A stretch of DNA of 64,000 nt from Yuukianura sp. NJ FZ-2021. Its lineage: Eukaryota. A program made the position numbers and the translations under genes. Of the stretch, positions 35,953 through 57,784 are shown in pieces (the stretch's first letter is position 1; every line of letters begins with the position of its first letter). The DNA lies in NCBI GenBank assembly GCA_046563655.1, contig CM102285.1:2976001-3040000 (forward strand), read 5' to 3'. The notes beneath the pieces were generated by a model. The model was not told the DNA's origin. It saw only the letters and a program-made list of their open reading frames with translations, and ran no database searches.

Positions 35953-36763
35953 TTAGCACTTGTCTTTGTGGTATTCCAGGGTTTTCAAAACGAGTGGTCC
36001 ATCTTTCTCGACCAATTTTGGATTTTCGAATCCAATGTCTTTAAAGTGTTTCAACATCTTCTTCTTCAATTTCTTGTCACCTGACATATCCTCGACAGTT
36101 GCAACCCAGAAGAATTGGTCCTCCCCAAATATACAAGTAGTTCCAGCCATGTACGTCTTGTTATCCGTCTTCGTCAAAACCATGTCACCCGCAACTAGAA
36201 GTATACAGAATTCGTTTTTAGGCGTTCATGAGGTTGGGGTGGTAGCAACAACAATGTAGTAATAGGTAATAATACAAGTATAAATACCAATTTCGTACAT
36301 GGTTTGTTGTGTGATTTTCCTGGAAGGAGTATACATCCTCCCTTTCCAGCCGCTGAGTAAGTACATTCGAAGTCAGCAGAAAACGGCTTTTTGTCCATGT
36401 CACCACTTAGCTGGTAGCACAAACTCTTTGGAGCCGTTCGACCCTCAAATGGTCTCCACTTTGGATCGCCTTTCTCGCAGTTTGTACAGTCTGAATGAAA
36501 TGGAATGTAGAATTTCCCTTGTCTAAGCTATAGAAAAAATAGTGGAAATCAGAAATTTTATTATATACATATTCTTTTAAAACTTTGGCGAAGACTGCTT
36601 TACGATTAAGATATGTATAAGGATTCTAAAGTAAAGAAAATTGCAACTTTCTTACAAACTCTTCCGAGATTGAAATGTGTTTTTTCATTGGAATACAATC
36701 CTTCAGTCCGTTGCTCCATGGCAATACGACGGCCAAAAGGCCTAGCGCTAGTGCAGATTTCAT
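35953..36763 (-). CDS. Secreted lipocalin-like protein, 192 aa, 3 coding exons
   Basis: Exons 36763-36656 (signal peptide MKSALALGLLAVVLPWSNG), 36527-36299 and 36194-35953 are in phase. Motifs are GKFY (cf. SCR1 GxWY) and VLTKTDNKTYMAGTTC...FFWVAT (cf. VLxTDYxxY...C...WIL), with a terminal Cys. Confidence 0.7.
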
Positions 36764-37345
36764 TGTGCAAATGGTTCGCTTCCGGATCCAGGTCGTTGCT
36801 TACGAAGAGAGGAACAAGACTGATGCTGAACTACAAATTGGAGAAGTTTCACAAAGCTCCGTTCAAACAACAGAACAATGGAGAAGCGGAATTAGACAAA
36901 GCTAAAATTTTCCAATGACTTAGAAAACCTTCGATAAGGCAGTAATTAAAATAACAAGCAATAAACTAACGGGATTAAGTTTTTCTACAAAAACAAAACG
37001 AAATCAAGGTTTTTGCATTGTTTGAAGTCTTGGCGTTTCATGATTGAAAATTGCCGTAATTGTTCTTTTTAAATGTTACCGACGAATTTGAATACGTAAC
37101 CTGAATACTTCACATCTAAATTTTATGATTCTCTATGAAGGTTGTATACCAAAATGTTCAGCGTTAATGGAATACAAAGAGAATGTGTGTGCGATTTTTA
37201 TTATCAGGTTGCAGCGCTTTTAAAATATTAGTAGTTACTTGATGTAGAGGCTTCTTTGATCTTTTTTAACATTTGTAGCATACTATTCGTTTTTTGAAGA
37301 AACGACTAAAACTTAAACCACGGTAGCAAAGAAGTTGCAGTGATT

Positions 37346-39052
37346 TTAATTTGGCATTTGGAATTGGATTAGAATGACGGAAAACGTAAGCAGCAGTTGG
37401 ATCATCTGAAATCAAAAAAATTATAATATTTTTTAGGCTAGTTCAAAATAATTTCTTGTGAAATAATCATAAGCGAAGAAAATTGTGTCAAATTCTAAAA
37501 ATCAAAAAATTCTAGTCCAATTCTCGAAAAAATGAATTGGCATGTTTTTTGAATGTAAAAGTGTAAGTCTAGATTGATTTGTATGCAACATCTATCGGCT
37601 AAGTAAAAACTAGGAGTTTGAGAAATTTCTACCCCTCCGACGAATCCTGGCGAGATGTTGCAAAATCCTGCACAACTGAATTCAACAAAGTGAGAACTGA
37701 TGTCGTGGAGTATAGAATTTGTTTGAAAAAGTGAAAGCTTGGACAGGTCTTTCATATGAATAAATCGATCCATTATCAAGTTTGCCTGAACACAACCAAA
37801 AAAGAACATGAAAATGTTAAGAAACCTTATTATTGCTTTTCAGATTTTTGTCGATTTGGCCCACCTTGCGTCCGATGTTAGCTGCAAATCCGAGAAACCA
37901 ATAAACAATTGAAAATTCGATAATGTTGATTGTAAAATCCCACGCGTTGTCGGGGTTGACAAAACTTGCGAATGTCACTACGAAGTAGGGCAGTAGACCA
38001 AAAACGATTCCAAAAATAAGTGGACCCAACGCTCTGTTGAGGAGTGTCATGATTTTCTTCAACGAAACAAATTCTTTGTATGTCTAAACCACATATGAAA
38101 AAATTAAAATTCCAAAATTTTTAAACAAAAGTTGTGAGAAGAAACTTACTTCCAAACCATCAACTTCTTTGTTGCGAACAACGCACATGAAGTGATTCAA
38201 ACAGTCGTTCACTACGAAACAAGAGGTTAACAGAAGCAGTTCACCACATGCCATGTAAAAGTAGTAAGAAAGTATGGAAAGGAAGCGTAAAACTGCAAAA
38301 AATGGCGTTAGGATTTCCGATGGTTGAATAATTTTTGACAGAAATACTTGTTGGATTCCATGGTTTCCTAATAGGGTCACTCCAGCATCAAAGTCCCACG
38401 ATGTTGCTGAAAAGTATACTAAAACCATTGGCACTGACATGCTGATGAGCAGTACAAAAAGTGTTGGAATCCATAAAATCTGAAAAACATGACAGAATTA
38501 AAACTCCGAAATTCACAAACTTTTAAGTTTCAAAACTTTGAAAATTGTCAATTTTCTTTGAAAATTTTCTTACTTTGAATTGATTTTTGTGTGGATTGTC
38601 GTAACTTTTGGATTCATGTAAAGTGTTAATGACTTTGAGAAACTTGTCAGCTCCCGTAATTTGTGAGAAAAAAATTATCATAAAAAGAAAACCGTCTGTA
38701 AGAAGGTTGACACGGCGGAAATAGAGGTCACCAGGGGTAGTGTTGATTTCCCGGCGTCTTTGAAGATCATATTCTTCTACGGCGTATTTCACACCACTGG
38801 AGGTAGTAAGAATGCAAACGAGTAGCCATATTGCCTAAAATTTACAAAAAATATATATATATATATATTTTGAGAAATTCTAACAAACAATTTTTAGATT
38901 AATCTTCTTATTCATTGACTGACCGTTTGGAAACGACTTCTGACAATGACGAATTTACAGGTCTCTGGACAAAGTTGAAAACGGAAGGGGAAGATGCATA
39001 AGTAATACGACAAGTTAAAGTAAAGACGAAGAAACTGCGCGGGATTTGCCAT
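37346..39052 (-). CDS. Gustatory-receptor-family 7TM chemoreceptor, 6 exons
   Basis: Starts MANPAQFLRLYFNLSYYLCIFPFRF at 39052. The short last exon MIQLLLTFSVILIQFQMPN* carries the GR TM7 signature T(Y/F)xxxxxQF, preceded by SCAGFCNISPGFVG. GT-AG introns. Confidence 0.88.
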
Positions 39053-41062
39053 AAGTTAACTACGAAGTTTTGCCACACTAAACACAATCCATTTATAATT
39101 TCTCGAAAACTCTCAAAGTGTCAAATTCTAGAAATTTTGTATTAACTTTCACTGAGCTACTCGCAGAAGTTTCAACAGAACTATAGTTTTAAAGGCTGCA
39201 AAAAATTATCGTATTGTGCAAAAATGTCAGACATTTTTAAAACGTTGATCTCCGTGAATGACTTTCAGGAAACTAGTTCATTCTAAAGTAAAACCGAAAC
39301 TTTTTTTTCTGTCACGACTCTGGCTGCTGACGGGTAATTGTCTGTAAGGTCTAAAAATAAAACAGATCTGATGTTCTGTTCGCAATAGCTTCAGTTTATG
39401 GGGAGAAGCGCCATGATATATTGGAATGAGAAGCATTTTAGAGTTATGGATTTTGTGTAACATAAAATGGCAAAACTGAAGTGTTTGTCAATTTATTTTT
39501 CATCGATTTGGGTTCCTGTAGCAAGGTTTAACTGCCTAAAATCAATCAACTGCGTTCCTAATTTTTTATGTAGTAATAAAATGTAATTTTTAAGATCAAA
39601 TCTTGGCTTTTGGTTTTTTATAAATAAACACTTGTGCTTTTTTTTACTTCTGTTTTTAATTCAAAGGTTGAAACTATTGGGAATTTAGTAGCGGTAAAGT
39701 CCATCATTTTGGTGTTTAGGATACTTTGAAAGTGGTAAACAAAATGGAAATGAACTTAAAGTCAACAAATTGCATTTAGATTAACACTCACACAAAGTTT
39801 ATGGTTAAGGGGACAAAAATAATTGTAAGAATTGCCCATACTGATTAATTATACGAACTAATTGTAAATATTTGAATATTAATATTGAAATTAAAACTAA
39901 CCATGCATACATAATCAGTTAAAGGTTTCGTGACTTACATTAGTAAGGTTACCATGTATTGGCATGGGTATAAAGAAGAACTCTAATCTCATACAACGGC
40001 AAAAACATAAAGTTTTCCTTCGATACTTACTACACGCTTATGCTGCAAGCCAGTGAGGGTAAATAAAACTTAACAAAACAATGTCAAATCCCAAAACTCT
40101 GTAAGGTATCGAGCAACATCATTCACTTATCTATCCTGCAGAATCAACGTATACAAAGTTATAGCATATATTATTAACTTATAGCATATACAAAGCCCTT
40201 TTCCAAAAACTCGTTAATGTTTGCCAACCGTTCTAAAAACTTCGTAGGGTGGATGGTGGACTTCTTATTATTTTTGAAGTTTCCATGCGGTAAAAAAAAG
40301 TTAATGCGTTTGTAGTCACCTTCGCGCCTCATAAAAGTATCATCAACGTGACCGCCTTTTGTTCAGCAAGAATCACATTAGCGATATCCCTAAACTCCGG
40401 CTGGGTATTTGGAATTACAAAAGATGTTGTACCAATGCGGATTTTATACTGTACAGTGATATAAATTGACGCTTTAATTAGACAAATGAACTGAAATGCT
40501 GTAAGTTTGTTGGCTTTAACGTCAGCTACAACTAAAATAAAACGAACGTTAAAAACCCACAATTCTAAACCCACCTTTGAAATTTTAAAAAAGAAAAGTT
40601 TTAAAAAACTCAGTCAGCTCTTAGCTTTTTTTATTGTTTTTTTTTATTCGTTTGAGTTCTGAAATTCAAAGCGTTAACAACCAAGGACCGGAAACATTAA
40701 AAGAAATGGTAAACACCAGTTCCTTACACATGTACTGAAGCAAATTTAAAATTACTAGTTTTTAAAAATAGCATACAATACGCTGAAGTTTGCATGGTAA
40801 AACTTAGCAATGTAGTTATTAGCATTTCACACACGACTAGATTGTTCATTTAAGAGAAACTTAACCTCCGACATACTTTGACTTAAGCTCCTTTGGCATT
40901 AGATGCATTTTCGTTGGAGTTATGTTTTCCTAAAACTACGTTTAAGGAATTCCCTGTGCAGTACCAGTACAACAGCAGCCGTAGAGTAAAAAGTTTCATT
41001 TGGTTTTCATAAGACAATTGTTTTCCATTGTGATTAGGGTCGTAATGGTTGTATTTCACTCA

Positions 41063-43136
41063 TCACGTGACAGCAGGAATGACAAAGTTTGAATTTTCAA
41101 ACTGAATGATGATGATGGAAAATGTGAGGAGTAGACTGATGATCTGAAAAATTTAAAAAGAGAACTTAAGGACCTGCCGTAATCAATCATTCACAAAAAT
41201 CCTCCTCCCGCATATTCCCAAAAGACAAACAAAAATTGAAAGGAAGATAAGTTTTTACTTACAGTTCCAACAAAACCGGGAGAAACCATAAAGAATCCTG
41301 ATCCGTTGAAACCAATGTTGTGACTTGCCAAATCATGCAGAAAAATACTGAGCTGATTCGGAGACAAGTCGCTGAAATCCTTCTCTGTCAACAACCGTTC
41401 CTCAAGCATATGGGCCTACAAAATTTAAAAAAAAAAACACTTTTTAATGGTTTCCATTATCTTAAGCGTCAAAAAGAAAGAAAAATCACATTCTTGGAAG
41501 CACTTAAATAAGAAATGAAATTCAAGTCTCACGCGCATGCCTTTATGAAAACGTCTAAGAAAAAATTTTCTGAAAATAATTTTTGGTCACGCGCCCTAAA
41601 TAAAACTAATCCCCAAAAATACTAAGTCCCGCTTATGCAAGTTATATTCTTCAAATTTTGCATTTTCAAAACATCAGAAACAGAACAAAGTTCTAAAACT
41701 CAAAATTGAAACAGACCTTTTTGTTAATCTGAGCTGCCATAATCAAAAAACCAAATGAGTTTGTGAAGAACATCATATGCCGGAAGAATGTAGCAACGTT
41801 TGCTGGGTTGATGAATTCGAGCAGATTTGCAATGTAGTACGGAAGGCAGGCAATTGTGAGGCCAAAGGTCAACGACCCAATTGTCTTGTTTAACTTTCTG
41901 GACAAGCTTCTTAGAAGGTCGTACTCTTTGAGAATCTGTTTAGGCAACAAAGTTTCGAAAACTACAATTTTATGTACAGTTCAAGTTAACTTAATCAATT
42001 TTGTGAAAAAATTATACAAAACTATCCTTTTTTTCTGTTGAACCCACCTCACCACTGGAATATTCCTTTGCATTTTTGACAATGACGCTGAAATCTGCAA
42101 TTGAATCTGACATCATCATGGCAGCGGTGATTGCCAGCATTTCCATAGATGTTGTCACTTGTGTGTAGGCCAGAAGAAATATGTTTCGGAAAATCGCCAG
42201 CAAAAGTTGAACGGCGTATGGATAATTCTTATAGTTGTTTTCTCCAAAAAATATTTTTGAGGTGTTTTTTCCCCAAAATGAGAAAATTTCGTCCCACGTC
42301 CAGCTCCAGTTTCGAATAAAAAATCCAGAAATGAATGTAACTGGGTAAACTACGAACGGAAGCAGAGAAATAACAAACCAGATTTGGGCCTACAAAGAAA
42401 TTTAAAAAAAAAATACAGAATTTTTGTCAATTGTGAGCTACCCTCACTGAAACTAATTCAAATGTAAAACTTTTTCACACCGAAGATTTAAAAGCTGCAA
42501 TACGACAAGAAATGGAAGGTTTAATCTAAGAGAAAATTTTCATGCAGAAAGGAAGCTACTTTCCATTATGCAAAATGTTTTAAATACGTACCTTGACATT
42601 AGCGTTGCGACGAGCGTTTCGGATTGCTGATTGCTCTTCTTGTTCATGTAAGTGTTGAAAGAGTACCAGGAAACGATGTGATTTACACCAGATTGTTCGA
42701 AAGACGGTTGCGTAGTAAACAAAATTTGAAGCAACGCTGAACATTTCAAAATAAATTATTGGATCTAGTCTGTTCTTAGCTTCGGGATTCCGGATGTCAT
42801 CTACTGAATCTCGAAAACTAATTGCTTCTTCACAGACGCAAAGAATCATCACTAATACAGCAAAAGCCTAAAGATATCTTTCCTATTAAAATCTTTTAAT
42901 ATTATTGCCAAAATTTCACAAAATTTGCGTAAAGTGCCTGCCTTAATAAAACAAAACAAATAAAGCAGCGTTTTTTAACTTACCTTTTGACATCTATTCG
43001 TTCTCAACTGATATGTATTGGATTCCGGATCAAACGCAATTCGAAATGGTAGAATTGCAGCATAATAACAAAAATTAACATAAATTCGTAAATAGTGGAG
43101 CGGATTACCCCTGGTCACGCTCCGAAATTTCGGCAT
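41063..43136 (-). CDS. Gustatory-receptor-family 7TM chemoreceptor, tandem paralogue, 6 exons
   Basis: Starts MPKFRSVTRGNPLHYLRIYVNFCYYAAILPFRI at 43136. Ends ...LHDLASHNIGFNGSGFFMVSPGFVGT / IISLLLTFSIIIIQFENSNFVIPAVT*. Same exon layout as the neighbouring GR. Confidence 0.88.
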
Positions 43137-43676
43137 CACTTTTAACTCCAGTTTAAATGGATTCTCAATCGATATTTGTCTACAATGTGAACTAGTTAGT
43201 AGTCTCCAAACATTTGCGACAATATTTTTCGGTTTATGTTAATGCAGCAGATTTCAGCCGGATGCTCACCCGGTTACAACTGAAACCAGAAGTTGTAAAA
43301 AACTTTTTACAGATTTTACATGAAAGTGAGAAGAAAAGAAAGTGATTCGGTTAGAAACAAGCCAAGATTTGTGTCAATTGAAAAAAGTGAGCAGTAGCTG
43401 AAAATTAGAAGGGGTCTTTCTTGGCAAAAACCCATGAAATCTTGGAAATGACATTTGAAATGTAGCCAAAAAGAAAATATGAGGCTTCAAGAAAGATGAA
43501 ATTTAATACCAATTGACTCATTTCACTATTTTTCACTATAACACAAATGAAAATTGCTGTGAATTTGAAAATTATATTGGCATCAATTACGACGATAAAA
43601 ATGTAATTTTGTTGTAATTGTAGGTAGCGTCGTCAAACGCATGTCAGCATTGGCAACAAGCGTTACTTCAGGCGTG

Positions 43677-44992
43677 TTAGTCTGCCTTCGTTGAGCTTTT
43701 GAAATACGTATTTCGAAAAAACTGGGCAAAGAGAACGAAGTAGGAAGCAGACACGAATGTAGAAGCCAATGCAAAAGTCCAATTCGTTTCGCAATGTTGA
43801 CCTGACAACTTTGTCGCCACGGTAAATAGACTCGCTCCAAGAATCAAAACCATTTGTATGATTTGCATACAAGTAATTGCTTGAGATATCACTGGAGCCA
43901 CCCGAATGTTCAGCGCCTATAATGCAAAAATGAATCATACTTTTGCCAATCAATTGTTAACTTTCAAATACAAAGTCGCAGTAATATAACGATTAAGCTA
44001 GATTTCAGACATTGAACAGGAGAACGGCATTCCAGTCACTCCTGCCCAACTGAAAAACCCAAGGTTGCTATAGCAACCAATTGTATTGCTACAAGTAGCA
44101 ATCAACAATGTGCTTGTTTACCCACCTTGGAAAAACCTGAACTGGATTGATGATTGAAAAGTTGTTAAATACTTGTTCATGTCTTAATATGGTCATGATT
44201 AAGGAATATTTCGACAACATTAACTGACACATTCCAGAATATTGTTAAATTTACCTTGGCAGCGTAATAGGAGTACATAACGGAGTGTACGGTGTAATTG
44301 AGAGAACAAACCCATGCAGAAATTGGGCCATACGTATGATAAAACATCCAACAAATCCAGAAAATGCTCATGTGGTGATACCTACAGTTGTAATGGGGAA
44401 TCAGATATCATGATGATTTAATAGGATTAATATAAAAGTTATATTTTGTTACCAGTGCAAAAAAATAAGCGGACGTTTTCGAAGTACAATGAACACAGTA
44501 TCGCCGAATTCCAAAGCCTTACTCAAAACAAACATCAACGCCCAGTATCTGAAAGATGTTGACCAGTGATCACTGTAAGAAAATACCAAAATATGTCCTA
44601 AGTACATCGTTGTAACAAAATTAATAATTCCATACAAGAATTTTTCGTAATAATGTATAAATCCAAATGTGTTTTGATTGCATTAACGTATTGTCGTTAA
44701 CTTATTACTTGCGACATATCGAAGTGTACAAGGGATTGCTAGTTTGAAACAGTCCAGCGATTTCCGGCAGAGTGTTTACAGCTCCAAACAAACTGAATAT
44801 TGCCAAAAATGCGTTCCAGAGGAACAGAGGTGTTTTGAGCTCATAGGCTCTACGATTTCGCAATTTACGTTGGCCCAAGGATATCCCAGTGAGATACACA
44901 CAAATGAGTGGGTACACGAAAGCCATTCGGTTGTACGAAAACCACTCCCGCCATCTACGTTCAGATGCAGCCTCTAGTCTCCACAAATCCAT
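43677..44992 (-). CDS. ELOVL6: Very-long-chain fatty acid elongase, ELOVL6/3 subfamily, copy a; 4 exons, intact
   Basis: Spliced frame gives [42 protein letters not shown] (His box split by an intron), [13 protein letters not shown] and ITCMQIIQM. The symbol is at subfamily level; orthology is untested. Confidence 0.93.
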
Positions 44993-46586
44993 GCTTTGTT
45001 TACTGCAACAAAACTGATTACAGATTTGTCACAAATGTTCACCGGGAAAAGAATAGAATCGAATAAAATTCAATTCAAGCAATGTGAAAAATTAACCGAT
45101 TTTTCCAAGATTTGTCTTTTTCTTTACAACGTCTACCGAAGAAAAATTTGCTGAGAGGAGAAATCCGCCGTTTAAATGTACGTAGACGCTTTATATAACT
45201 CCGTACATTGCTGGATTCCCTACACTAGAGTTAACTGGGTTTCATATCATCTTGCAAGATTGAACATCGAATGTTGTCGGCGTTGCGAAAATTTCCCACG
45301 ACTTTAGAATAAATATTTTCCAAATTTATGTTTGTATTAATATATCAGTGTTTCGTATCCAGTTCTTCAAAGTTATCATGGAATCACCGGAACGCCATTA
45401 GTTTTTCTCACGGATCAACCCCTTCAAAGCTTTCAAAGCTTGTGTCCTCACTGTATAATGAAATATATATAAGGTAATATTCAATTTAGACTCATATAGG
45501 TCGTAGGTAGATTTGCTGAATATGATTAAATGAAAGTGAAAACAATAATTGCCAAGTTCCCTGGCAGCATGTTTATCTGCTTGCATAGTTACGGAATAAC
45601 GAATACGTCATTCGATAGACGGAGTAGGCATTAATGCATGAGAAAATATGAAATTGTGACGTTTGAGTTCCGAGTTCTCTCCACTTAGAAGCTTATTAGT
45701 TGTTTACAGAGTTGGATTATTATGTAGACAAGTTTTGCTTAACCTCCAAAAATATACAAACGTAAATAGTGAATTGGAGGAACAATAAAGTGGTCTTCGT
45801 CATTGCATACGTCTCTGTGGAAACATAGAAAGGCCTTATAAGCTTCGCGTACGAAAAATGAAACAAAATGGCTTGGTAAAACTCTTTTGCAGAAAAAGCG
45901 GAAAAGATTCGCGGGTTCACTTAAGTCTTACGAATACCTTGGAAACTAGGGGGGTCAAAATTGGGCTGTAACTCACGAATTGAATGGTGATGTGGCTCAG
46001 CATAGGAATGTCGTACAGTGACGTACAATATATCAAACCTAAAACACTTTATTTAGTATCATTCAAGAAAAAAATACAATATGTTATTTGTAACTATTAA
46101 AAAAAATCAATCCAAATGAAATGAAACGTGCGATAAAATTTATAATAATCGACATTTTAGTTCGAAACAAACAGCGTCTGATTAATAATCGAGTAAAAGT
46201 GTGGGGAAAACACTATAACAAAATATTTCAAAATGTATTTGCCAATGTTGTAACTCTTAAATAAGCGAAGCACTTTTACATAAAAGCGATTACAAACTGC
46301 ATCTATTTCCAAGTTAAATAGAATAATAGGGAAGGTCTTATCCAGATTGTTTTTCAAAACTAGTTGCTACGGGAATTTTATCACTCCCCGTGACGCCGTG
46401 TACAGTGCTGGCAAACATCATCATATTAATTATATTATATTTCATCATATTAACCTTCAAACGTTCGACGCTAATTTAAAAATAGCTTAAAACTCATAGA
46501 GTTGTCAGGGGGATTTTTGGTTTCTTTCTCTTTACCTAGAGTGGACATCGATGAATTTTTTAAACAAAATGTTTGAGATAATTTAG

Positions 46587-47798
46587 TTAGTTTGCTTTCG
46601 TTGTGTTTTTCAAATACGTATTTCGAAAAAACTGGGTAAAGAGAACGAAGTAGGAAGCAGACACGAACGTAGAAGCCAATGTAAAACTCCAACCCGTTTC
46701 GCAATGTTGACCTAATAATTTTGTCACTACGGCAAATAGACTCGTTCCAAGACCCAATACCATTTGTATGATTTGCATAGACGTAATTCCTTGAGATATC
46801 ACTGGAGCCACCCGAATGTTGAGCGCCTATAATACAAATACGAATAATAGTTTTACAACTCTACGGTTAACTTAAATAATAGACACTTAGGCGAGGAGGT
46901 CTTGTTAGAGTTGGATGTTATGCTAATGAATTGGGAATCAAGCTTGAACCGTTGCTTGGGTCCACCACAGGTAGGTTAACTTGAACGTTGTTAAATATGG
47001 GTTGATGTCTAAATATTGGTGACATCAGACAAATTCTTCAACAACTGACACGTTTTGCAAAAATGTTAAATTTACCCTGACAGCGTAGTAGGAGTACATT
47101 ACGGAGTGGACGGTGTAATTGAGGGCACAAAACCATGCAGAAATAGAGCCATAAGTATGATAAAATATCCAACACGTCCAGAAAATGCTGATGTGGTGAT
47201 ACCTACAGTGTAATGGCAAATCGAGCAAATTATATTTAATCATGCTCATTAACTATAATTAACCCTAAAGTTATAATAGTTTACCAGTGCAAAAAAATAA
47301 GCGGCCGTTTTCGAAGTACAATAAACACAGTGTCGCCGAATTCCAATGCTTTAGTCAAAACAAACAGCAAGCGCCAGTATCTGAAAGATGTTGACCAGTG
47401 GTCACTGTAACAAAATATCAAAATATTTCTTAGTCCGTCGTAACAACGTTACTAATTCCGTACTGAAATTTTTTCCAAAAATGTACAAAAATAAAATACG
47501 TATTGACAACTTGCTTGTGGCATGCGGAAGTGTACATGGCATTGTTAAATTTAAACAGTCCAACCATTTCTGGCAGGATGTTGACAGCTCCAAATATACT
47601 GAATACAGCTAAAAATGAGTTCCAGAGAAACAGAGGTGTTTTGAGGTCATAGGCTTTACGATTGCGCATTTGACGTTGCGCCAAGTAAATCCCAGTGAGA
47701 TACACACAAATGAGTGGGTACACGACAGCATTTCGGTTGTACGAAAACCACTCCTGCCATCGACGTTCAGCTGCAGCGTCAAATGTCCACAAATTCAT
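46587..47798 (-). CDS. ELOVL6: ELOVL6/3-subfamily elongase, copy b; 4 exons, intron 1 needs a GC donor
   Basis: Same motifs ([38 protein letters not shown]). Exon 1 47798-47515 is 284 nt, as in copies a and c, but is followed by GCAAGT. Confidence 0.88.
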
Positions 47799-48824
47799 AC
47801 TTTCTTTACCGCAAGAAAACTGATTATCGATTTGTCGAAAATTTTTACCGGCCAAAACCACAAAAGCAAATTAACGTGAAATCCAAAAACGTGGAAAATT
47901 ACTTTAGCTAAACTTTAGCCAAACAAAAATTAAAACTTTTAGCCAAAACGAAAGATGAGGACTAGACACATTCATAGATTATTACTAGTTTAATTAGACT
48001 AAGACCACATTCGTGGGTTCTAATTAAGGTTTGGTAAAAACAAATTGTACATGCTCGCGTATAAATGATAAATAAATTTCAGATTTCAACTTCCACATAA
48101 TTAATTGAGCAATATTGCAGCATCGAGCGTCATGTCGACGTTGAGGAAATTTCACACCACTATAAAATAGCAAAGTTCCAAGTTTATAATTGCATCAAGA
48201 TTCGCGTATGTTTTACTATATTCGTCAGAGAACATAGAAAAACCAACAGTTTTCTCAAGAATCAAGGCCTTCAATGAAAACTCTCTTTAATTTAAACTCA
48301 CACATTACGTAGATTATTTGCTGGATAAAATTAAACTAGTATAATCAAGCACAATAATGCCCAGCATAATAGCTTCTCATCTCATGACGACATACCTATG
48401 ACGATATATGGCTTGCGTAAGCAATTCGTCGCACGTAATCGGAAAATAATGCATGAGACAACATTAAATATTATAAAATACTTTGACGTGAACTTATACC
48501 TTTGACGTGTTTCCAATTAAAACCTTATTTAGTAATTAAAAAGTTGAGTGATGATTTTAATTGAGTTTTATCCAGAGTCCAAAAAATTTCAACGTAAATA
48601 ATGAATTTTAATGCACAAAACAACAAAACTTCCGTCATTGTTTGCGTCTCTGCGGAAACATAGTTGATTTATAGAATTTATTGCAAGGTAAAATCGCCTT
48701 TTATACGATTAGTTGATAATTTGATTTTGACTTGATTATAAGATTGCAATCAAAGGCAAAAACCAAAAACAAACTAACGAAAAACTAAAGTTGTTTAACA
48801 TAATATTTTGTCTAATTCGGTCAT

Positions 48825-50209
48825 CTACGACGAGAGTACGATAGATATAGAGTGATAACGTAAGCCGCTGTGAGACCAAAACATGTATGTTAATATTTGC
48901 CCATCACAAATGTCTTTGCATGCTGTGATGAATGCTTCTACACTTCCCTCGTCTGGAAACGCTTGATGCAATTTTTCAATAACAAGATTCATGTCAGCAA
49001 TTGTGCTTAACAGACGACGGTAAGTTTTATCAAAACTCTGATGAACTGGAATCATTTTTCGCACAACTCTGCGCAAAATTTCATTTTTCTCTGCTTCGTT
49101 TCCTACAGTGTCACCATGTAATCCAACAATATCGTTCAAGTAGACACCAAACTCCGTGACACACTTTACCAATGTTTGGAAAAGTAATGTTTTTCGGATT
49201 TTGTGAACATTAATCTTCTGCATTTCCACGTAGAATTCAAGATAAACTTCAGCGCCAATGTCGTGTCTTCGAAAGTGCTTCAACGTTTCTTCTCCAAACG
49301 TTACACTCTTGTCTGCTTTAGACATCAACACCGCTCCTTCCAAGGCATGCGTAAGCGCTGTTACTGTGTGTTTCCAACATGGTTCCGATAATTCTGCGTT
49401 GACCTTCTTCCAAGTCTGCGCAAGGACAGAAAACTTTTCCTCTGCTGGCGGATAAACTGAACTGATGCGTTTTCCAAGGTTGCTAAACTTCTCGTCGTTG
49501 CTTAATGGCCCCTCCAAATCACTTTTCTTGACCTCTGCCCATGCGCGTCGATATAGGTGCCAACATCGTCAAAAACCTTGTTTTCCTCAAAGGCGTCATC
49601 CGTATGGTACCCTGATACAATGGCGTCTAGACCTATTTCAAAAATGGTTGACTTTGCATCAAAACGTGGAAAACCAAGAGCAACGCAGACAATAAGTGCG
49701 TTCAGCGTTTTCGACAGCTCTTCTTCATCCAGTTCCTGTAAGAATGAGCGCAGTCGTTTGGTTGTAACACTTAATAGGTGATCTTGTTCTGCTTTTGTGA
49801 GGTCAAAGTAGTTCGAAATTGGGTAAGACCTTATGAAAAAAATAAAATTAATAAAATAAATCATAATAAACTTCATTGCGACTAAAATAAGTAGTAATTT
49901 TGAAAATATTTGAATAAAAATAAGAAAATATAAGTTCAAATTCCAACGATGCAATTCAAATATTTGGACTTTGAAGGATTTTTTTTGTTAACTAGAAAAA
50001 TGTAATATTTTAGATGCATGAATTTTAGAAATAGGTTCTACGTTTTACTTCCGAGAATGGAAAAGTTCGATTTCACCACCCAAATTTTCTGCAATTCCAA
50101 ACTGGGGGTGATCAATGGTTTCCAAATTGAACTTAACTTTCACTTTGTCCGATGCAATTGAACAAGGAAATTTAAAACGAAATGCTCCATCGTCTCCATT
50201 AGAAACCAT
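48825..50209 (-). CDS. Microbial-type class I terpene synthase (Terpene_syn_C_2/isoprenoid-synthase fold), about 390 aa; one intron and one frameshift (pseudogene or assembly error)
   Basis: Exon 1 50209-50049, a GT-AG intron of 219 nt, then exon 2 from 49829. Motifs fall in canonical order: GFPR, HTDDAFEE (DDxxD/E), FRRHDIG (pyrophosphate-sensor Arg), YLNDIVGLHGD (NSE/DTE-like), EKNEI and WSHSGLRY (WxxxxxRY). The frame changes between 49568 and 49505. Confidence 0.82.
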
Positions 50210-51050
50210 ATTTAACGTAGTAGTTTTAACGTCCTTAGGAACTATTTGCACTCTAAAGTGATACACTTTGCGTGGTGGGATTTTTCTAGCAATACTACAT
50301 AAAATCAAAAATTCTACAGACGAAGCAAGTTGTTATCCAATGCCATCCTCGGAAGGACATGCAAATATTTTTTTGTAACTACTATTGGGTAATCGCGCTC
50401 ACACAGACTCAATGATGTCAGTCTTTAATACTCTTGTTTTTTGGTTGATTTAAAGAAAACAAAACATGCAGTTTTTATATTTACTGGGGAATACCTGGTT
50501 GGAAAACTGATATAACGTGTTTCAGTCGGACACTCCAAGAATGCCGAAGGACCACAAGTTTTAGCACATTATTGAAGGAACAACACCAAAAAAGTGGTCA
50601 CTAACCATTTATTGGCTCAAATGCAGCTTATAAATTTGTAATACGGAGTAGAAATATTTCATATTCCGTAGTATATATAACTACTATAGTAAATTTAATT
50701 ATTGATTTTTGTAACTCTTTTTTTAATAATGTGTTCTTCTGTTTTTGTAATAATTTTCATAATCGAGAAAATCTATCATGCCCGCCCGTCGTGCATAACT
50801 TTTACTAAACTTAAGTTTACTTTCAGCAAAAAATATTTCAAAAACCATTGTTTTTTTTATTGGAAGGAATAATGTTCGCAAAATACGGGTTTGGCAATGT
50901 TGATGCTGGATTTACCAAGGCAATTTCGTGTGGGGTCGAAGAAAAATTCAAGGTGAACAACAAATTGAACTTCTTTTGAGATTTCCAGTAACTGAATATT
51001 AGTTGTACTAAAGTGAAAACACACTAAAAACTTATTTCAGTTCATAAAAA

Positions 51051-52016
51051 ATGGTGCAAACTTTGAAATTTGTAATTTTGCTCCTTACTGTTGGATTGTG
51101 TAATGGTAATCCTATGGACCAAAGCAATGGAGGCCAATCACAGTTGTCTGGAACTGAGCTCCTTGAAAAGTTTGAATAAACTTTATTTAAACATTTTTCT
51201 ACAAACCTCTTATAGCTTTTTGTTTTGCTCGAATTTCATGCTTGGCTCACATAACGTATAGTAACTATGTGATTATAGTTACATTATTTCACTTTTATTT
51301 ATTGTGCGTTGCTGTTTTTGGTAGGATGAGGGAGTGCGTGAAGTCAAGCTTCAATAGTCGATTTCACAATGAAACGCAACAGTGCTACGAAATTGGTTCA
51401 GCAGGACCGTGTGGAAATAATACCAACATGATTTTTCTTACGGAAGACAGTGAGGAAGACCACGGCCATTACGGGTCATGTCAATGCAAACAAGCGCGGA
51501 GAATAACCGCCTATTACTCGGCACATGGAAGGTGTTATTCCGTTTACGACCAGGTAACATGTGGTAAAGCGTTAGCAAAAATGGTCACATACTTTTTCCA
51601 TTTGGCACTACTATTTTATTTAATTTGCGCGAGTAGTCATATTTCCAACTGGTTGTTTCAAATTTTAGGGTTATTGCCCTGAAGGATATTTTTTGAGCCC
51701 TGCGCATGAGGATTCTGCTGAAATCGGATGCCAGGAGAATACATGTTTCCAGCCAGGGGTTCCGGACTTGATTCCATTTGAAGGAGACTGTGTCGAAATC
51801 GGATCACGTTGTGATACAGAAAGCGCAGAAGACGAATATGACACTTACAGACGGAAGAGAATTCAAATTGGGGATGATGGATATACGCTGTTTTGTGGGT
51901 ATCCAAACTATTCTGCGTTTTCAATTGCAGGAATCGTTGCAACTTGTCCAAGGGGCACGTACACAACACGGTACCTGACTTGCAGACGCGTCATTTTCAA
52001 TGCCGACGATTGGTAA
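51051..52016 (+). CDS. Secreted Cys-rich DUF4789-like protein, 3 exons
   Basis: Exons 51051-51169 (signal peptide), 51325-51553 and 51669-52016. Repeats CYEIGSAGPC and GRCYSVYDQGYCPEG match the arthropod DUF4789 CY...QGPC pattern. The first donor (GTTTGA) is weak. Confidence 0.75.
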
Positions 52017-52667
52017 ATGCTGGAACAAATGAACGCGAATTTGAGAGAGGATTCAATATACAAAAAATTCGTATTCGTTAAGAATAAAGCCTACACTGAA
52101 AATGTTAATTCTATTTTCGGTCGCAATTTTTAAACATACTCCTCGTGCCGGTTATTTTTGCAACGAAAGCAGTGAAGTCTCAAGCTTTGGTACAAGAACA
52201 AATGCTGATCTAATCTACTTTTCCCTAAAGTGTTGCATCACATGGTATAACTTTCGCGTCACATATGACCCTCAATTGCAAATTCTGGTTTGACAGTTTG
52301 TTTACATATGAGAGAGATCCTCCAAAATTTAAGGCTTTACGGTATCCCGCGCTGGAGGGGGGTGGGGAATATGGCTGTAACTTACGAATTGAAAAGCTGC
52401 ATCTGTTTCAATGGTAAGTAGAATTTTAATAGGTAAGGTCTTTAACGGATTGTTTTTCCAAACCTGGTTGCTATACGGGAATTTTACCACTCCCCTTGGC
52501 GCCATGTAGCGCTGCTAGACGTTTTCCTCATTTTAGCTACCAAACTTTTGCCGGTAATATAAAAATAGCTTAAAAACTCATAAAACTGTGAAGGTGATTT
52601 TTGCTTTTTTTTTCGTTTTAAATAGAGTGGACATCTATGCATTTTATAAACAAAATTTTTGAAACAA

Positions 52668-53847
52668 TTAGTTAGTCTGTTTCGTTGTGTTTTTCAAATA
52701 CGTATTTCGAAAAAACTGGGTAAAGAGAACGAAGTAGGAAACAGACACGAACGTAGAAGCCAATGCAAAAGTCCAATCCGTTTCGCAATGTTGACCAGAT
52801 AATTTTGTCACCGCGGCAAATAGACTCGTTCCAAAACCCAAAACCATTTGTATGATTTGCATAGACGTAATTCCTTGAGATATCACTGGAGCCACCCGAA
52901 TGTTGAGAGCCTATAATACAAAAACGAATAATAGTTTCACAACTTAACTTAAATAATAGAGGCTTAGTCGAGGAGGTGTTGTTAGCTTTAGGCACGAGGA
53001 GAAACGGAGTACGGAATCTAGCTTAAACCGTTCCTTGGTTCCACCAAAGGTAGGTTAACTTGCGCTTTGTTAAATATTTTTTCTTAATTACTAAACATTC
53101 ATTTAACTGACACGTTTTGCAAAATTGTTAAAATTTACCCGGACAGCGTAGTATGAGTACATTACGGAGTGGACGGTGTAATTGAGAGCACAAAACCATG
53201 CAGAAATGGAGCCGTATGAATGATGAAACATCCAACACATCCAGAAAACGCTCGTGTGGTGATACCTGCATTGTAAAATGGTAAATGAGGCAAATTATAT
53301 GTAGAATTAACCTTACAGTTATAATTTTTACCAGTGCAAAAAAATAAGCGGACGTTTTCGAAGAACAATGAAAACAGTGTCGCCGAATTCCAAAGCTTTA
53401 CTCAAAGCAAACAGCAAGCGCCAATATCTGAAAGATGCTGACCAATGGTCACTGTAACAAAATACCAAAAGATGACTTAGTTTGTCGTAACAACATTACT
53501 AATTCCATACTAAATATTTTTTGCAAGAATGTACAAAAACAAAATGCATTTTCATTAACTTACTTGAGGCATACGGAAGTGTACAAGGGATTGCTAGTTT
53601 GAAACAGTCCAGCGATTTCCGGCAGAGTGTTTACTGCTCCAAACATACTGAATACTGCTAAAAATGCATTCCAGAGGAACAGAGTTGCTTTTAGGTCATA
53701 GGCTTTACGATGTCGCATTCGACGTTGCGCCAAGTAAATCCCAGTCAGGTACACACCAATGAGTGAGTACACGACAGCATTTCGGTTGGAGGAAAACCAC
53801 TCCCGCCATCTATGTTCTACTGCATGGTCAAATGTCCATAAATCCAT
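52668..53847 (-). CDS. ELOVL6: ELOVL6/3-subfamily elongase, copy c; 4 exons
   Basis: Exon 1 53847-53564 (284 nt). [38 protein letters not shown] and ITSMQIIQM are recovered after GT-AG splicing. Confidence 0.92.
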
Positions 53848-54407
53848 ACTTTCTTTACCGCAACAAAACTGATTAACGATTTGTTACTTTTCACTGGCCT
53901 AAACCACAAAACCATGTGAAATCCAAAAACGTGCAAAATTAAAGCATAAAAAGCTTTTAAATCATGTTTTTGGGAAAAAATTTGAGGAGAAGAGAACTTC
54001 TGGTGTTGGTGTTATAACGGCGTTGAATTCCCTACACTAAAATAAACTTTAGTACACAAATTCGATAATTTTTACAAACCTGTCAAAGAATCGCGTAGTT
54101 ACTCGACTAGGTTAGCTAGTATAATGTTAGCCATGCTAAGTATAAATTAAGTAGAGTAGGATTAAGTTATAGTAATAATATGATATGAGTACCTTTTATT
54201 CTAAATCGGTGATATTTTGGAATAGGTTAGATAATTGTTTAAATAGAAACTTTTACTCAATTTCAAAATGAACTCAAAAAAACACTTTTTGAAAACCAAC
54301 TAAAACTTTAGCCAAAACGAAAAATGAAGACTAGCAACATACATAGATTATTACTAGCTTAATTAGACTAAGACCACATTCGTGGGTTCTAATTAAGATT
54401 TGGTAAG

Positions 54408-54751
54408 AACTTGTCCAACGGGAACGTACAGAACAACGTATCTAACTTGCAGACGCGTCACTTTTAACGCCGACGATAGGTAAATGCTGAAACAAATGAC
54501 CGCGAATTTGAGAAAGGATTCAATATACAAGAAATTCGTATTAGTCAAGAATAAAGCATAAATTGAAATTGTAATGTTTAATTCTAATTTCGCTAGTAAT
54601 TTTAACATGCGCCTCGTGAATAGGTTATTTCTAGAACAAAATCAGTGAAGCCTGAAGTCACAAGTTTTGGTGCATACATAGACTCTGATCTAATCTACTT
54701 TTCCATAAAGGTTTGCATCACATGATGGAAATTTCTCAATTTGGAATTCTG
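54408..54751 (+). pseudogene. Truncated duplicate of the 3' end and 3' flank of the DUF4789-like gene
   Basis: 54409-54483 reads TCPTGTYRTTYLTCRRVTFNADDR*, against TCPRGTYTTRYLTCRRVIFNADDW* at 51942-52016. Nucleotide similarity continues to about 54751 versus 52288. No upstream exons are present. Confidence 0.85.
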
Positions 54752-55216
54752 AACCCTGAAAACTGAAACTTAGTTGAACATTTAACTTTTAAAAACAACA
54801 CACTGATTAAATTTATCACAACTACTCCGTGTTCCAGAATATTCTATATATTCTACAAGCAGGAGTTTAGTCGTAAATGCCTAGAAGTCTTGAGTGTTCT
54901 AACGGAACAATTGAAGTTGATAAAGAGCAAACACTTGTTGAACGACAAGATAATTACCAGTGCAGTGTGAGATAGCTTTCATGTATAAATCTCTTGTCCA
55001 AGTGTTGTTTCAGTTTCTTTGGTTTCCAGTGGCCAGATATTTTAAACCATATGAAAACATTCCTGAACAATTACTAAATAGGAATTTTTACAAGTTCAAT
55101 AGGCTATTAAGTAAGAAAAAAAAAGTCGCCACATTTTTGAACTCTTGCACTTATTCCATATTGGAACAAAAAATCAAACGCTTCCCAATTAGAAATAGTT
55201 CTTTTAGTTTTGTAAA

Positions 55217-56497
55217 ATGGAAAAGTCAAGGGTAGAAGAAGTGATTGGTGAGTCTGTGACAGAGTTCGAAGTATCTCCAGGATGCAAAAACGGAGACGGA
55301 ATGGCGGGAAAACTAACTTCAATTTACGCCAAAACAACTTCAGGAAAAGAACTTCGGTTGGTTCTAAAAGAAGTGGATAAAAGTTCACCAATGGGCGGTG
55401 AGCAGGCAGAGGGCGGATCATTCAAAACTGAAAACATGGTTTACTCCAAGCTCATTCCAAAGTTGACCGAATTTGCAAAAAGTCGCGGCGTTGAAGTTCA
55501 AATTCCAGTTCCAAAGATTCAATCAACATACCAAGGAACGGAAACATTAGACGATTACATTTGCATGGAAGATGTTCGATATCAAGACTACAAGATGACG
55601 GACAAGTATGCCGGACTCAGCCTGGACGAAATGCTGATTGTCATGACCGAACTGGCAAGATTTCATGCTCTTGGGCATGCGCTGATCAGATGGGAAGGAG
55701 AAAAGATCTTCACAGAGTCACTTGCTACACTAGTTGAGTTCTTCAGTGTAGATACTTTTGCTGAAGAAATTCACCATCCAAAATTTGAAAGTTTTTACAG
55801 CATTCTACAAGGAGGTTTGCAAATTGCTGTAGAAGTTTTGGAAGGTCGAAATCCAAAGTTACATGAAAAATTGAAAAAACATGTCGAAAAAATTTCTGGA
55901 CCGAAAATAAATCGGGACGAACTTTACGGAATTTCAACTGGAACGGATTTCAAATACTTTCCAGTCATTGTGCATGGAGATGCTTGGCAAAATAACTTTA
56001 TGTTCAAGTACGACAAAAATGGAGTTCCGACTTCCGTCAAATTTCTTGATTTTCAATTCACCCGCCGTGGAAATTTGTATGAAGATTTGTTGTACACTGT
56101 ACACACATCTACTACACCAGAATTTAGACGTCTTCATCTTCCCACCATTCTGCAAAAATACTACGATTCGTTCACTTCGTTGCTCAAACAACTCAAAATT
56201 CATCGTCCAATTGGATTTACATTTGGATCATTTTTGGACACGTTTCGTGAAAATACTATCTTTTGTTATCGGTACATGACATTTGCAATTCCACTTCAAC
56301 TGGGAACTTCAATTCCAGATGTAATGGCCATGATGATGCAACAGAATCCAGGCATGCCTCCTCCAGCAGATCCAACTCCAGAAGAAAAGATGCAAATGTT
56401 TATGGGAATCATGCGCGTCCAGATCAACACTAGCCCAAGGGCTATAGATCGTCTTGAAGCATTGACACAGGAAATGGTAGATTTAAGTATCTTGTAA
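55217..56497 (+). CDS. Ecdysteroid kinase-like (EcKL/DUF227, choline-kinase-like) small-molecule kinase, single exon, 426 aa
   Basis: Motifs GDGMAG, LVLK, FKTENMVYSKLIP, YICMED, ELARFHA, Brenner motif VIVHGDAWQNNFMF, VKFLDFQ and DLLY. Confidence 0.92.
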   Translation: MEKSRVEEVIGESVTEFEVSPGCKNGDGMAGKLTSIYAKTTSGKELRLVLKEVDKSSPMGGEQAEGGSFKTENMVYSKLIPKLTEFAKSRGVEVQIPVPKIQSTYQGTETLDDYICMEDVRYQDYKMTDKYAGLSLDEMLIVMTELARFHALGHALIRWEGEKIFTESLATLVEFFSVDTFAEEIHHPKFESFYSILQGGLQIAVEVLEGRNPKLHEKLKKHVEKISGPKINRDELYGISTGTDFKYFPVIVHGDAWQNNFMFKYDKNGVPTSVKFLDFQFTRRGNLYEDLLYTVHTSTTPEFRRLHLPTILQKYYDSFTSLLKQLKIHRPIGFTFGSFLDTFRENTIFCYRYMTFAIPLQLGTSIPDVMAMMMQQNPGMPPPADPTPEEKMQMFMGIMRVQINTSPRAIDRLEALTQEMVDLSIL

Positions 56498-57784
56498 CCT
56501 TAGTAATTCTAATTAGGTTAATGGTAACATCTTAACATGTTAAGATAAATAAATGTTTCGATGTTTGACAAAGTTTCCATGGGTTAATGACGTTGTCCAA
56601 ATTCATTTCGGCAGTGATAATTTCAAAAAAAAAGCGGGAAAACATTTGCTTAGTAGCGTCTAGCACATTTGCTGATTCCAACATTTTTAAATTTTTGCTC
56701 CAAAATATTTATCTAGGGCGATTTTTCAACACGATTTTGAATCTATTGATTTTCTAGGAACAAATTTTTTTGTTGCTAGAACGAATGAGCTCCCCTTGCT
56801 TCTGAAGAACGACACTTGTTAGGTAGAAGTTTTTTATGTATTGGCATGCTTCGACATTAGCTCACGTCAATTTAAATCTTCGCGCTTGCTCTTCAATAGA
56901 ATTAGATGAAGATTGAGACAGTAATCAGGAAGTTTCTAAAAATAGTGCTCACAGTGATAACGGCAACTTCCGCCAGTACTTGAGGCTTGATGTGGCAGGA
57001 AGTTGCCTCTACTTTCAGGAAGAAGAAAACTGCCTCAACTTGTAACTTGCAGAAAACTGCTTGCTGCTTCTCAATGTGAAGGGACACTTGAATTTGAATG
57101 TGAATTCACACAGTAATTCTCTACTATAAATGTAAATCTTCACAATCGTTGTAGTACCCTATGTGAATGTAAATTCTGCAAAAGTTCTAATATTTTCCGC
57201 GTTTTCAGACTTCTGAAATAAGATTAATTTTTTCTTTTTAATTTTCAAAGTGAAGTCGAAGCTTATCTCCGGCTCTTGTTTATGACTGTTCCTGATTGGC
57301 TGTTGATTTTGAAAACGACTCAAGCAGAATTTGCAAAAATTATTATCGATAAAAGTACTAACGAAACAGTGGAGAAGATGGAGAAACTTATTAGGAAGGC
57401 AAAATAAGTTTTATTCCGATTTATCATTCCCATTGTTAATTTTCTGGGGCTCTTTAACATTTAAGTTCGAATTCTTTTTCTTTGCTACAACTCGCTGGGA
57501 TTAAATTCTAAATCTAGTTTAAGTGAAGGGTGTAATAAATTTATTTTTAAGTTCTTTTGTTCAGAATCCGACATCCACACAGCTCTTGAACTAATGTTCT
57601 TTTGTTTTTATAATCTTTTCAAATTAGGAGGCGTTCTACATACTACTTTGATGTTCTCTGATTTTCGCAAGGTCGATTACTTATCGACTTTACTTAACGC
57701 ATTAGAACTCGAGCCTTTTTAGTTTTCCGTGAAGCTACAAGTTTTAGCTTACTTAGTAGGTACCTACAGTTGTGAATTTACAAG

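Follow-up and report, generated by a model that had tools for sequence, protein, structure and literature searches.

Genes of the block

The window analyzed here is a 64,000-nucleotide stretch of contig CM102285.1 of Yuukianura sp. NJ FZ-2021. Positions 35953–56497 carry, in this order, genes for a lipocalin, two gustatory receptors (GR), two ELOVLs, a terpene synthase (TPS), a DUF4789 protein, a third ELOVL and an EcKL kinase. Inspection of open frames and exons confirmed the coordinates and order of these nine genes as given in a preliminary description of the region. Its statement that no housekeeping gene lies within the block was also borne out, as no additional gene was seen among the nine. 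The features are as follows.

35953..36763, minus strand: lipocalin; GT..AG model with 3 exons, open 192-aa frame, signal-peptide-like start
36764..37104, minus strand: region preceding the lipocalin start, inferred to be its promoter and 5' leader; also present in sense orientation ahead of a TPS subclade elsewhere in the genome
37265..39052, minus strand: GR-like gene A; open frames with limits set by eye, no spliced model
41063..43136, minus strand: GR-like gene B; open frames with limits set by eye
43677..44992, minus strand: ELOVL 1; PF01151, four open exons, HWYHH histidine box interrupted by intron 2
46587..47798, minus strand: ELOVL 2; PF01151, intron 1 with a GC donor; opens the duplicated block
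48825..50209, minus strand: predicted microbial-type class I TPS; 2 exons, CDS 1166 nt, PF19086 E 0.001
51051..52016, plus strand: DUF4789 Cys-rich protein; PF16033, 3 exons, signal-peptide-like start
52668..53847, minus strand: ELOVL 3; within 52394–54735, a duplicate of 46294–52255
54298..54735, no strand: junction of the duplicate block; ELOVL upstream sequence fused to the 3' end of DUF4789
55217..56497, plus strand: EcKL kinase; PF02958 E 2e-51, one exon, 426 aa, HGD and DFQ motifs

The family assignments proposed previously held to differing degrees. The ELO and EcKL genes score above the Pfam cut-offs: an exon-by-exon check found the PF01151 profile, the histidine box and open frames in the ELOVLs, and the EcKL gene matches its profile and has the kinase motifs. 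The DUF4789 assignment is marginal, with a Pfam score of 27.6 against a cut-off of 27 bits. Neither GR gene yielded a Pfam match when single exons were searched. The exons of GR-A are 35–44% identical to those of GR-B, making the two genes paralogues, and Atlas features relate a GR-B exon (0.92) to clusters in which 11–17% of the members contain 7tm_7. Gustatory receptors of the 7tm_7 family carry a C-terminal TYxxxxxQF-like motif; TFSxxxIQF was seen by eye in the GRs. Contigs of data set X3 span parts of ELOVL 2, TPS, DUF4789 and EcKL (55116–56392). One of them stops at 47515, the end of an ELOVL 2 exon, and both DUF4789 introns are present as GT..AG joints. X3 was classed as RNA-like solely by its spliced joints, and its contig depths are unusable for ranking genes. 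X1, X2 and X3 all come from one sample; X5 is an independent run.

The lipocalin was assigned by fold and profile. It is one of eight close paralogues located on four contigs, 65–87% identical, and no Pfam match was obtained for this divergent, cysteine-rich family. Foldseek yielded nothing with an E value of 0.001 or lower, and none of the 29 candidates from a word-based protein search with a lipocalin exon was a relative. With the exon-3 profile, 9 of 11 PDB matches are lipocalins (E 0.01–0.6). The exon-3 model, which comprises the C-terminal 79 residues only (pLDDT 74), aligns best with the Blc fragment 6ukl_D (Z score of 6.0, RMSD of 2.7, 59 aligned) and with many lipocalins at Z scores of 3.3–4.4, values that are modest. 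The modeled beta-barrel strands and C-terminal helix, together with an SCR2-like segment, fit the lipocalin fold. An Atlas value of 0.92 was obtained for a lipocalin paralogue, and the single-sequence fold of a paralogue has a pLDDT of 34. Caspase-6, ranked first by an eight-sequence lipocalin profile, was dismissed as a chance match. Counting against the TPS tie described below, the nearest paralogue of the window lipocalin neighbors a PKS, and the copy at C3:6879 kb is frameshifted. One metagenome relative of the lipocalin lies on a 3.3 kb contig that has no TPS and is too short to judge linkage.

The frameshifted terpene synthase and the duplicated block

The TPS exon scores 19.3 against the PF19086 (Terpene_syn_C_2) cut-off of 23.7, whereas its nearest paralogues exceed that cut-off. 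The profile of the TPS clade matches four PDB terpene synthases (E 0.0009–0.005), which places the predicted protein among microbial-type class I terpene synthases. An HMMER search identified 420 relatives, of which the ten checked were unnamed or 'hypothetical'; a word-based protein search with the TPS exon returned 230 candidates, none of them a relative. Judged by the motif list in the available text of PMC13638087 (DDxxD/E, Arg sensor, NSE triad, RY), the window TPS has DDAFE, the Arg sensor and RY, and its NSE-like motif NDxxGxxGD lacks the Lys of the clade. The protein is 42–51% identical to a trio at C3:3529–3536 kb. A search of the assembly revealed no second copy of the window TPS at the DNA level.

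A 1-nt frameshift near position 49560, just after the DDAFE (DDxxE) motif, limits the as-is reading to 162 of ~388 aa. The assembled allele has no single open frame with both metal-binding motifs and cannot yield a full enzyme. Broken copies occur among other TPSs as well (e.g. C4:9015 kb, C2:1623 kb and C7:7245 kb). The same frameshift occurs, with no gaps, in a spliced X3 contig over 48640–49827. Assembly error was rejected as its source because the break lies outside a homopolymer and the X3 contig, from the same sample, agrees. Removal of a 44-nt GT..AG intron, which would restore the frame, was rejected for the X3 transcript since there are no gaps there. A second allele, present in X1, X2 and X5, has three extra bases at 49199 that supply a residue conserved in the paralogues. 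Therefore, an intact allele may exist.

The DUF4789 and TPS genes are head to head, their start codons 841 nt apart. ELOVL 3 lies in a block with 82% DNA identity across 1624 nt, and dS between ELOVL 3 and ELOVL 2 is 0.23; for the ELOVL trio, dS is 0.23–0.28 and dN/dS 0.36–0.43. At the junction, 54298–54410 matches 47928–48041, and 54408–54735 matches 51941–52255. The latter segment is a DUF4789 remnant and tags a duplicated block without a TPS; this block is missing the 3.9 kb that carries the TPS in its first counterpart. Local duplication gave rise to the three ELOVLs, which are tandem copies, and to the two GRs, and the ELOVL-(TPS)-DUF4789 block was duplicated with a second copy that has no TPS. 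The preliminary description mentions neither the TPS frameshift nor the tandem nature of the ELOVLs nor the DUF4789 remnant. Comparison of the upstream regions of the nine genes revealed sequence in common only among the ELOVLs, besides the trivial TPS/DUF4789 overlap.

Neighbors of terpene synthases across the genome

The genome contains at least 53 TPS matches. The adjacency test covers contigs C1–C8 (93.0 of 98.7 Mb), with family lists that are lower bounds, a TPS distance threshold of 15 kb (additionally 25 kb for EcKL) and the window excluded from the tests quoted unless indicated. Enrichment of other TPS paralogues beside ELOVL or EcKL genes, whose absence the preliminary description named among its refuting conditions, was tested with a largely negative outcome. 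An ELOVL lies near a TPS at 1 of 15 loci (p 0.18–0.20, no enrichment); counting the window gives 2 of 16 (p 0.017–0.024). Of 11 other EcKL loci, none has a TPS within 15 kb; extending the distance to 25 kb gives 2 (p 0.02 when permuted over the chromosome, 0.11 when permuted locally). DUF4789 (0/6) and GR genes (1/12) are not enriched at 15 kb. The earlier caveat that adjacency may be due to chance stands, without the window, for ELOVL, EcKL (15 kb), DUF4789 and GR.

At the 25 TPS loci for which 6 kb or more of flanking sequence was retrieved, partners are lipocalin (4 loci), P450 (4), ELOVL (2), EcKL (1) and DUF4789 (1), and the combination seen in the window occurs at this locus only. The P450 candidates scored (92 of 544) are too few to judge TPS-P450 enrichment. 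Neighbors at other TPS loci include an FMO, a carotenoid oxygenase, a UGT, a peroxidase and an FAD oxidase. An unrelated locus at C4:3430–3457 kb comprises P450, GR-like, TPS, TPS, GR-like and ELOVL genes, with 2.6 kb between TPS and ELOVL.

These data bear on the original proposal, in which one locus produces a cuticular or signal compound, modifies and transports it, and also detects it. Such a locus would join a TPS product and long acyl chains, phosphorylated by the EcKL, carried by the lipocalin and read by the GRs; the TPS gene would then be polymorphic and the frameshifted allele, which the proposal does not mention, a null. Consistent with it are the absence of unrelated genes among the nine, the TPS-GR-ELOVL locus on C4, the less damaged TPS allele and the terpene and fatty-acid-derived lipid classes that springtail cuticles contain according to the available part of PMC11321324. 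However, the assembled TPS allele is broken and the duplicate block has no TPS, there is no 15 kb enrichment outside the window, common upstream sequence is confined to the ELOVLs, and the C4 ELOVL has another exon layout and is unmatched by the window ELOVL exons. As a single pathway the proposal is unsupported, and both the locus and its detailed chemistry are considered quite improbable. The only part independently backed is a pairing of synthesis with carriage, TPS with lipocalin, through recurrent adjacency and upstream sequence common at other loci.

Outside the window, 2 of the 6 loci of the close lipocalin family have a TPS no farther than 15 kb away, where ~0.1 is expected. The permutation p value is 0.001–0.005 (local p 0.001), rising to a borderline 0.03–0.08 against other families and to 0.09 if TPS density is fourfold above the count. 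Two lipocalins at C2:1724 kb were omitted because they were discovered by looking beside a TPS. Lipocalin-TPS proximity thus probably exceeds chance, and the chance caveat probably fails for this family. TPSs adjoining lipocalins occupy at least three distinct places in the TPS tree. In the window the two genes are 12.6 kb apart, and the tie there is one of proximity alone; the lipocalin upstream region is absent from the window TPS.

The window might instead represent a decayed TPS-lipocalin unit, descended from an ancestral pair common with C2:1722 kb and later expanded by the GR and ELOVL arrays. The window and C2:1722 kb TPSs belong to one clade (98/93), with lipocalins near both; however, the two lipocalins are of different subfamilies and no lipocalin accompanies the nested trio at C3:3529 kb. 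This history is considered very improbable.

The ~340 bases 5' of the window lipocalin start codon recur, in sense orientation, upstream of a young TPS subclade with four long open frames (C7:4037, C7:1553, C7:1583 and C1:2959; 325–378 codons) and two broken copies. The region has spread along with the TPS copies at 95–96% identity, and its use as a probe recovered two intact TPSs overlooked by protein and family searches. From sequence, this arrangement looks like promoter capture. A purely fortuitous origin was also considered, in which mobile copies settle in the same permissive islands and a single local inverted duplication incidentally produced the shared upstream sequence, without selection for co-expression. 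The weaker p values against control families and at fourfold TPS density agree with it, as do the two promoter copies at C7:7244 kb, which are inverted neighbors. In addition, of the 4 lipocalin-TPS loci, 2 have one broken partner, and C7:7230–7250 kb also carries additional TPS and lipocalin copies that are broken. Against it, the captured region precedes four TPS copies whose frames stay open, the region traveled with them, and the local permutation gives p 0.001. Chance is considered an unlikely explanation.

Interpretation and comparison with known systems

The reading we favor, with some reserve, sees the block as a patchwork, an island of chemical-ecology gene families with fast turnover, and not as a single pathway. 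Weighing against this reading are the TPS-GR-ELOVL locus on C4, ELOVL adjacency when the window is counted, the EcKL count at 25 kb, the second TPS allele and the X3 contigs over ELOVL 2, TPS, DUF4789 and EcKL. Each intact gene would act independently in the manner typical of its family: ELOVLs would extend acyl-CoA, the EcKL would phosphorylate hydroxylated small molecules and the GRs would sense contact chemicals. We know of no chemistry common to prenyl-diphosphate cyclization, acyl-CoA elongation and EcKL phosphorylation. The exception to the patchwork would be the genome-wide lipocalin-TPS tie, the two families occurring together at several unrelated loci. The young TPS subclade may have acquired its promoter and leader, as a non-coding first exon, from the lipocalin, and the captured promoter would activate these TPSs in lipocalin-secreting cells. 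A broader make-and-carry terpene module is put forward tentatively, as a possibility that we consider somewhat doubtful: microbial-type TPSs wired into a secretory cell program via the captured promoter and leader, a lipocalin as putative carrier, the families repeatedly united, and the window a decaying or polymorphic instance. The nine-gene pathway can be dropped or given low priority. The TPS subclade with the lipocalin upstream region points to a cell type and a candidate carrier, and the region itself is a practical probe for TPSs. To our knowledge, tissue control of microbial-type synthases in animals and terpene transport to a cuticle or gland outlet have been little studied.

The available parts of PMC13638087 and PMC11665903 describe springtail microbial-type TPSs that, like the window TPS, are intron-bearing class I members of an expanded lineage-specific family, with the Asp-rich motif, Arg sensor, NSE-like motif and RY. 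The window TPS differs in its frameshift and in having NDxxGxxGD where the paralogues have NDxxGxxKD. Lipocalin, P450, synteny or neighbor are not mentioned in the main text of PMC13638087, a study covering 26 springtail genomes, as far as available. The window lipocalin shares the fold, the TD-x-x-x-Y segment and the signal-peptide-like start with arthropod lipocalins (Per a 4, bilin-binding protein) and differs from them in its divergent cysteine-rich family. Lipocalins have been proposed, as a hypothesis, to carry the terpenoid cantharidin, and the available part of that source describes no linkage to a synthase (PMC8576976).

As in the sponge oro biosynthetic gene bundle, ordinary animal enzyme families lie in one region; according to the available text, conservation among the producer species is what defines such bundles in animals (PMC12833800). 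Octocoral terpene cyclase clusters likewise place an animal TPS beside specialized-metabolism genes, and in the accessible parts of these reports the cyclases occur with P450 or other oxidative enzymes, are biochemically tested and are conserved across species (PMC11784711, PMC12685057). In contrast, the nine-gene block has no tailoring oxidase, its TPS is broken and it is known from sequence alone. The locus at C7:7230–7256 kb, with a TPS, five P450s and a lipocalin, resembles the octocoral cluster type more than the block does.

Gene order and the state of the TPS

The nine-gene order reported in the preliminary description (lipocalin, GR, GR, ELOVL, ELOVL, TPS, DUF4789, ELOVL and EcKL) is correct. 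The ELO, EcKL and DUF4789 genes passed the Pfam cut-offs. The lipocalin had no match in the Pfam search; lipocalins provided 9 of the 11 PDB matches to its exon-3 profile, and its exon-3 model best matched a Blc lipocalin fragment (Z 6.0, rmsd 2.7, 59 aligned). The Atlas features of one GR-like exon matched arthropod clusters at 0.92, with 7tm_7 in 11–17% of cluster members. These features, together with a C-terminal motif typical of GRs, indicate that both genes are likely gustatory receptors. Three genes lie upstream of the block:

window 5251-6456, bHLH gene
window 27622-31748, XK-related gene (weak match)
window 32331-33014 (32.3-33.0 kb), BLOC1S2 gene

A fold-back element of 880 nt with 364-nt, 94% complementary arms (window 33835-34716) adjoins the outer side of the lipocalin, and further palindromes occur at 10299-10557 and 12775-12965; all are probably non-autonomous DNA transposons. 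Unlike most of the genome's EcKL matches, which consist of several exons, the EcKL at 55217-56497 is intronless and may be a retrocopy.

The assembled allele carries a broken TPS. Its two exons total 1166 nt, one nucleotide short of a full frame, and the frame shifts near 49560, directly 3' of DDAFE, leading to a stop after 162 of ~388 residues; the paralogues cross this point in a single frame. The break is real and transcribed, since a contig from run X3, which is RNA-like by the GT..AG joints of both DUF4789 introns, covers 48640-49827 with one mismatch and no gaps, although X3 shares its sample with runs X1 and X2. X5 is an independent run. A second allele, present in X1 and X2 and in X5, carries three extra bases at 49199, a site other than 49560; these supply a residue conserved in the paralogues. 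This allele counts against a fixed pseudogene, and an intact TPS allele may exist. Over window 43200-56700, X1 and X2 differ from the assembly by many letters and indels, a pattern that a second, highly divergent haplotype would give.

Duplication in the block and neighbors of other TPSs

The number of ELOVLs in the block is the result of duplication. The DNA at 52394-53941 is a copy of 46294-47901, and at 54408 ELOVL upstream sequence is fused directly to the DUF4789 3' end. The 3.9 kb carrying the TPS in the first block has no counterpart in the second; either the TPS was deleted there or it arrived in the first block later, and in both cases ELOVL 3 is retained without a TPS. The three ELOVLs are 79–84% identical over 251 codons, and dN/dS of 0.36–0.43 at dS of 0.23–0.28 indicates intact genes under purifying selection. 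Intron 1 of ELOVL 2 begins with GC (47514) versus GT in the paralogues, and an X3 contig stops exactly at the exon end.

The window spans C3:2976001-3040000 of the assembly searched (98.7 Mb, 22 contigs), which contains at least 46 TPS matches, or at least 53 with those found in the DNA stretches examined, at least 20 ELOVL genes in at least 16 loci and at least 12 EcKL loci. The expansion of this intron-bearing, microbial-type TPS family suggests that the animal is a springtail. Adjacency was tested on contigs C1-C8, with the window excluded, by moving every partner locus to random positions, either anywhere on its own contig or no more than 1 Mb away. Enrichment of TPS paralogues beside ELOVL or EcKL did not appear at 15 kb outside the window, where 1/15 ELOVL loci (p 0.18–0.20) and 0/11 EcKL loci were close to a TPS. 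At this distance the counts were 0/6 loci for DUF4789, 1/12 loci for Pfam-detectable GRs and 2/63 for the best-scored P450 candidates. At 25 kb, 2/11 EcKL loci were close (p 0.02 by contig, 0.11 locally), and inclusion of the window raised ELOVL at 15 kb to 2/16 loci (p about 0.02). The other ELOVL-TPS locus reads P450-GR-TPS-TPS-GR-ELOVL (C4:3430-3457 kb). Flanks of 6 kb or more were available on either side of 25 TPS loci, six others having too little; among these 25 the window's gene combination is unique. TPS neighbors in the genome are many and varied, the other loci adjoining P450s, FMO, carotenoid oxygenases, UGTs, peroxidase or FAD oxidase. The proposal that all nine genes make, modify, carry and sense one compound is improbable, given the frameshifted TPS and the absence of ELOVL or EcKL enrichment at 15 kb outside the window, although the gene order it builds on is correct.

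The TPSs at C4:1440-1449, C2:2488-2492, C7:6118-6129 and C6:6399-6410 kb have carotenoid oxygenases, a flavin monooxygenase or P450s as neighbors. At C2:1579-1627 kb, four EcKLs surround a large PKS-like gene, followed by four ionotropic-receptor-like genes (by eye) and two TPSs, one broken.

Association of lipocalins with TPSs

The lipocalin is the exception among the partner families in that its adjacency to TPSs is probably above chance. It has seven close paralogues (65–87% identical) in six other loci, two of which, C3:6879 kb (1.4 kb away) and C7:7243 kb, lie within 15 kb of a TPS (expected ~0.1, p 0.001–0.005 by permutation). With four distant relatives added the count is 2/10 (p 0.011–0.015). 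Two divergent lipocalins after the TPS at C2:1722 kb were left out, having been found by inspecting that locus. The excess is weaker when compared with all other families pooled (4/107; p 0.03–0.08), and it comes from one of seven family sets that were each examined at two distances. Pure chance as the source of the adjacencies, though unlikely, retains an appreciable probability. Also against a tie, the C3:6879 kb lipocalin has a frameshift and the sister of the window lipocalin (87%) adjoins a PKS. On a 40-row tree the five lipocalin-adjacent TPSs require four label changes, at least three of them forced, so the pairing was not inherited as a single unit. That the window, with its broken TPS, is a decayed ancestral pair is very improbable. 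We regard the link between TPSs and lipocalins as a modest lead that can be tested.

Close lipocalin paralogues also occur by a PKS and hydrolase, FAD-linked oxidases, an SDR and a berberine-bridge-like enzyme (C7:2440-2470, C6:4985-5025, C4:14170-14183 and C3:6865-6882 kb), and the family may go with specialized metabolism in general. The locus at C7:7230-7256 kb comprises a TPS, three P450s, a GPCR, a lipocalin, a truncated TPS, two more P450s and a lipocalin remnant.

About 340 bases 5' of the window lipocalin ATG have sense-strand counterparts upstream of the TPSs at C7:4038, C7:1582 and C7:7245 kb. In the TPS copies the alignment stops at the position of the lipocalin ATG, which is altered; a GT donor-like site comes next, and the coding exon lies ~0.1–0.6 kb beyond. 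From these alignments we infer that a non-coding first exon of these TPSs was formed from the promoter and leader of the lipocalin. The lipocalin is taken as the donor because all eight close lipocalins carry the region at least partly and the sister TPS at C7:6118 kb, which matches in coding DNA only, is without it. Searched against the genome, the region matched 15 places, 14 of them at intact or remnant 5' ends of lipocalins or TPSs and one a 111-base piece with neither explanation. Two of the matches are new full copies, each with a TPS frame downstream (378 and 369 codons) that had escaped the protein searches. The region-bearing subclade is young and comprises four long open frames and two broken copies; the copies at C1:2958-2961, C7:1553-1555, C7:1582-1584 and C7:4037-4039 kb are 90–95% alike in DNA, each behind the lipocalin-derived region. 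This putative promoter may drive transcription of the subclade; sequence comparison did not find it at the window's own TPS.

The explanation that we consider most likely, and on balance probable, is a patchwork island of separately acting intact genes around a TPS being lost, with a loose TPS-lipocalin tie. Each intact gene would act separately in the role known for its family, the window TPS would be in the process of being lost, and the tie would be real, regulatory at other loci and positional in the window.

Comparison with known systems

Published work assigns EcKLs to hormone metabolism and detoxification (PMC10859841), proposes lipocalins as cantharidin carriers (PMC8576976) and describes springtail TPSs (PMC11665903), with 277 genes in 21 of 26 genomes and four active enzymes (PMC13638087). 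A search of mainly open-access texts did not find a description of TPS-lipocalin linkage or promoter sharing. The single metagenome relative of the lipocalin lies on a 3.3 kb contig, too short for synteny. In animals, gene bundles are known from sponges (PMC12833800) and TPS-P450 clusters from corals (PMC11784711, PMC12685057). The locus at C7:7230-7256 kb, with TPS, P450s and lipocalin, fits a coral-type terpene cluster better than the window block does.
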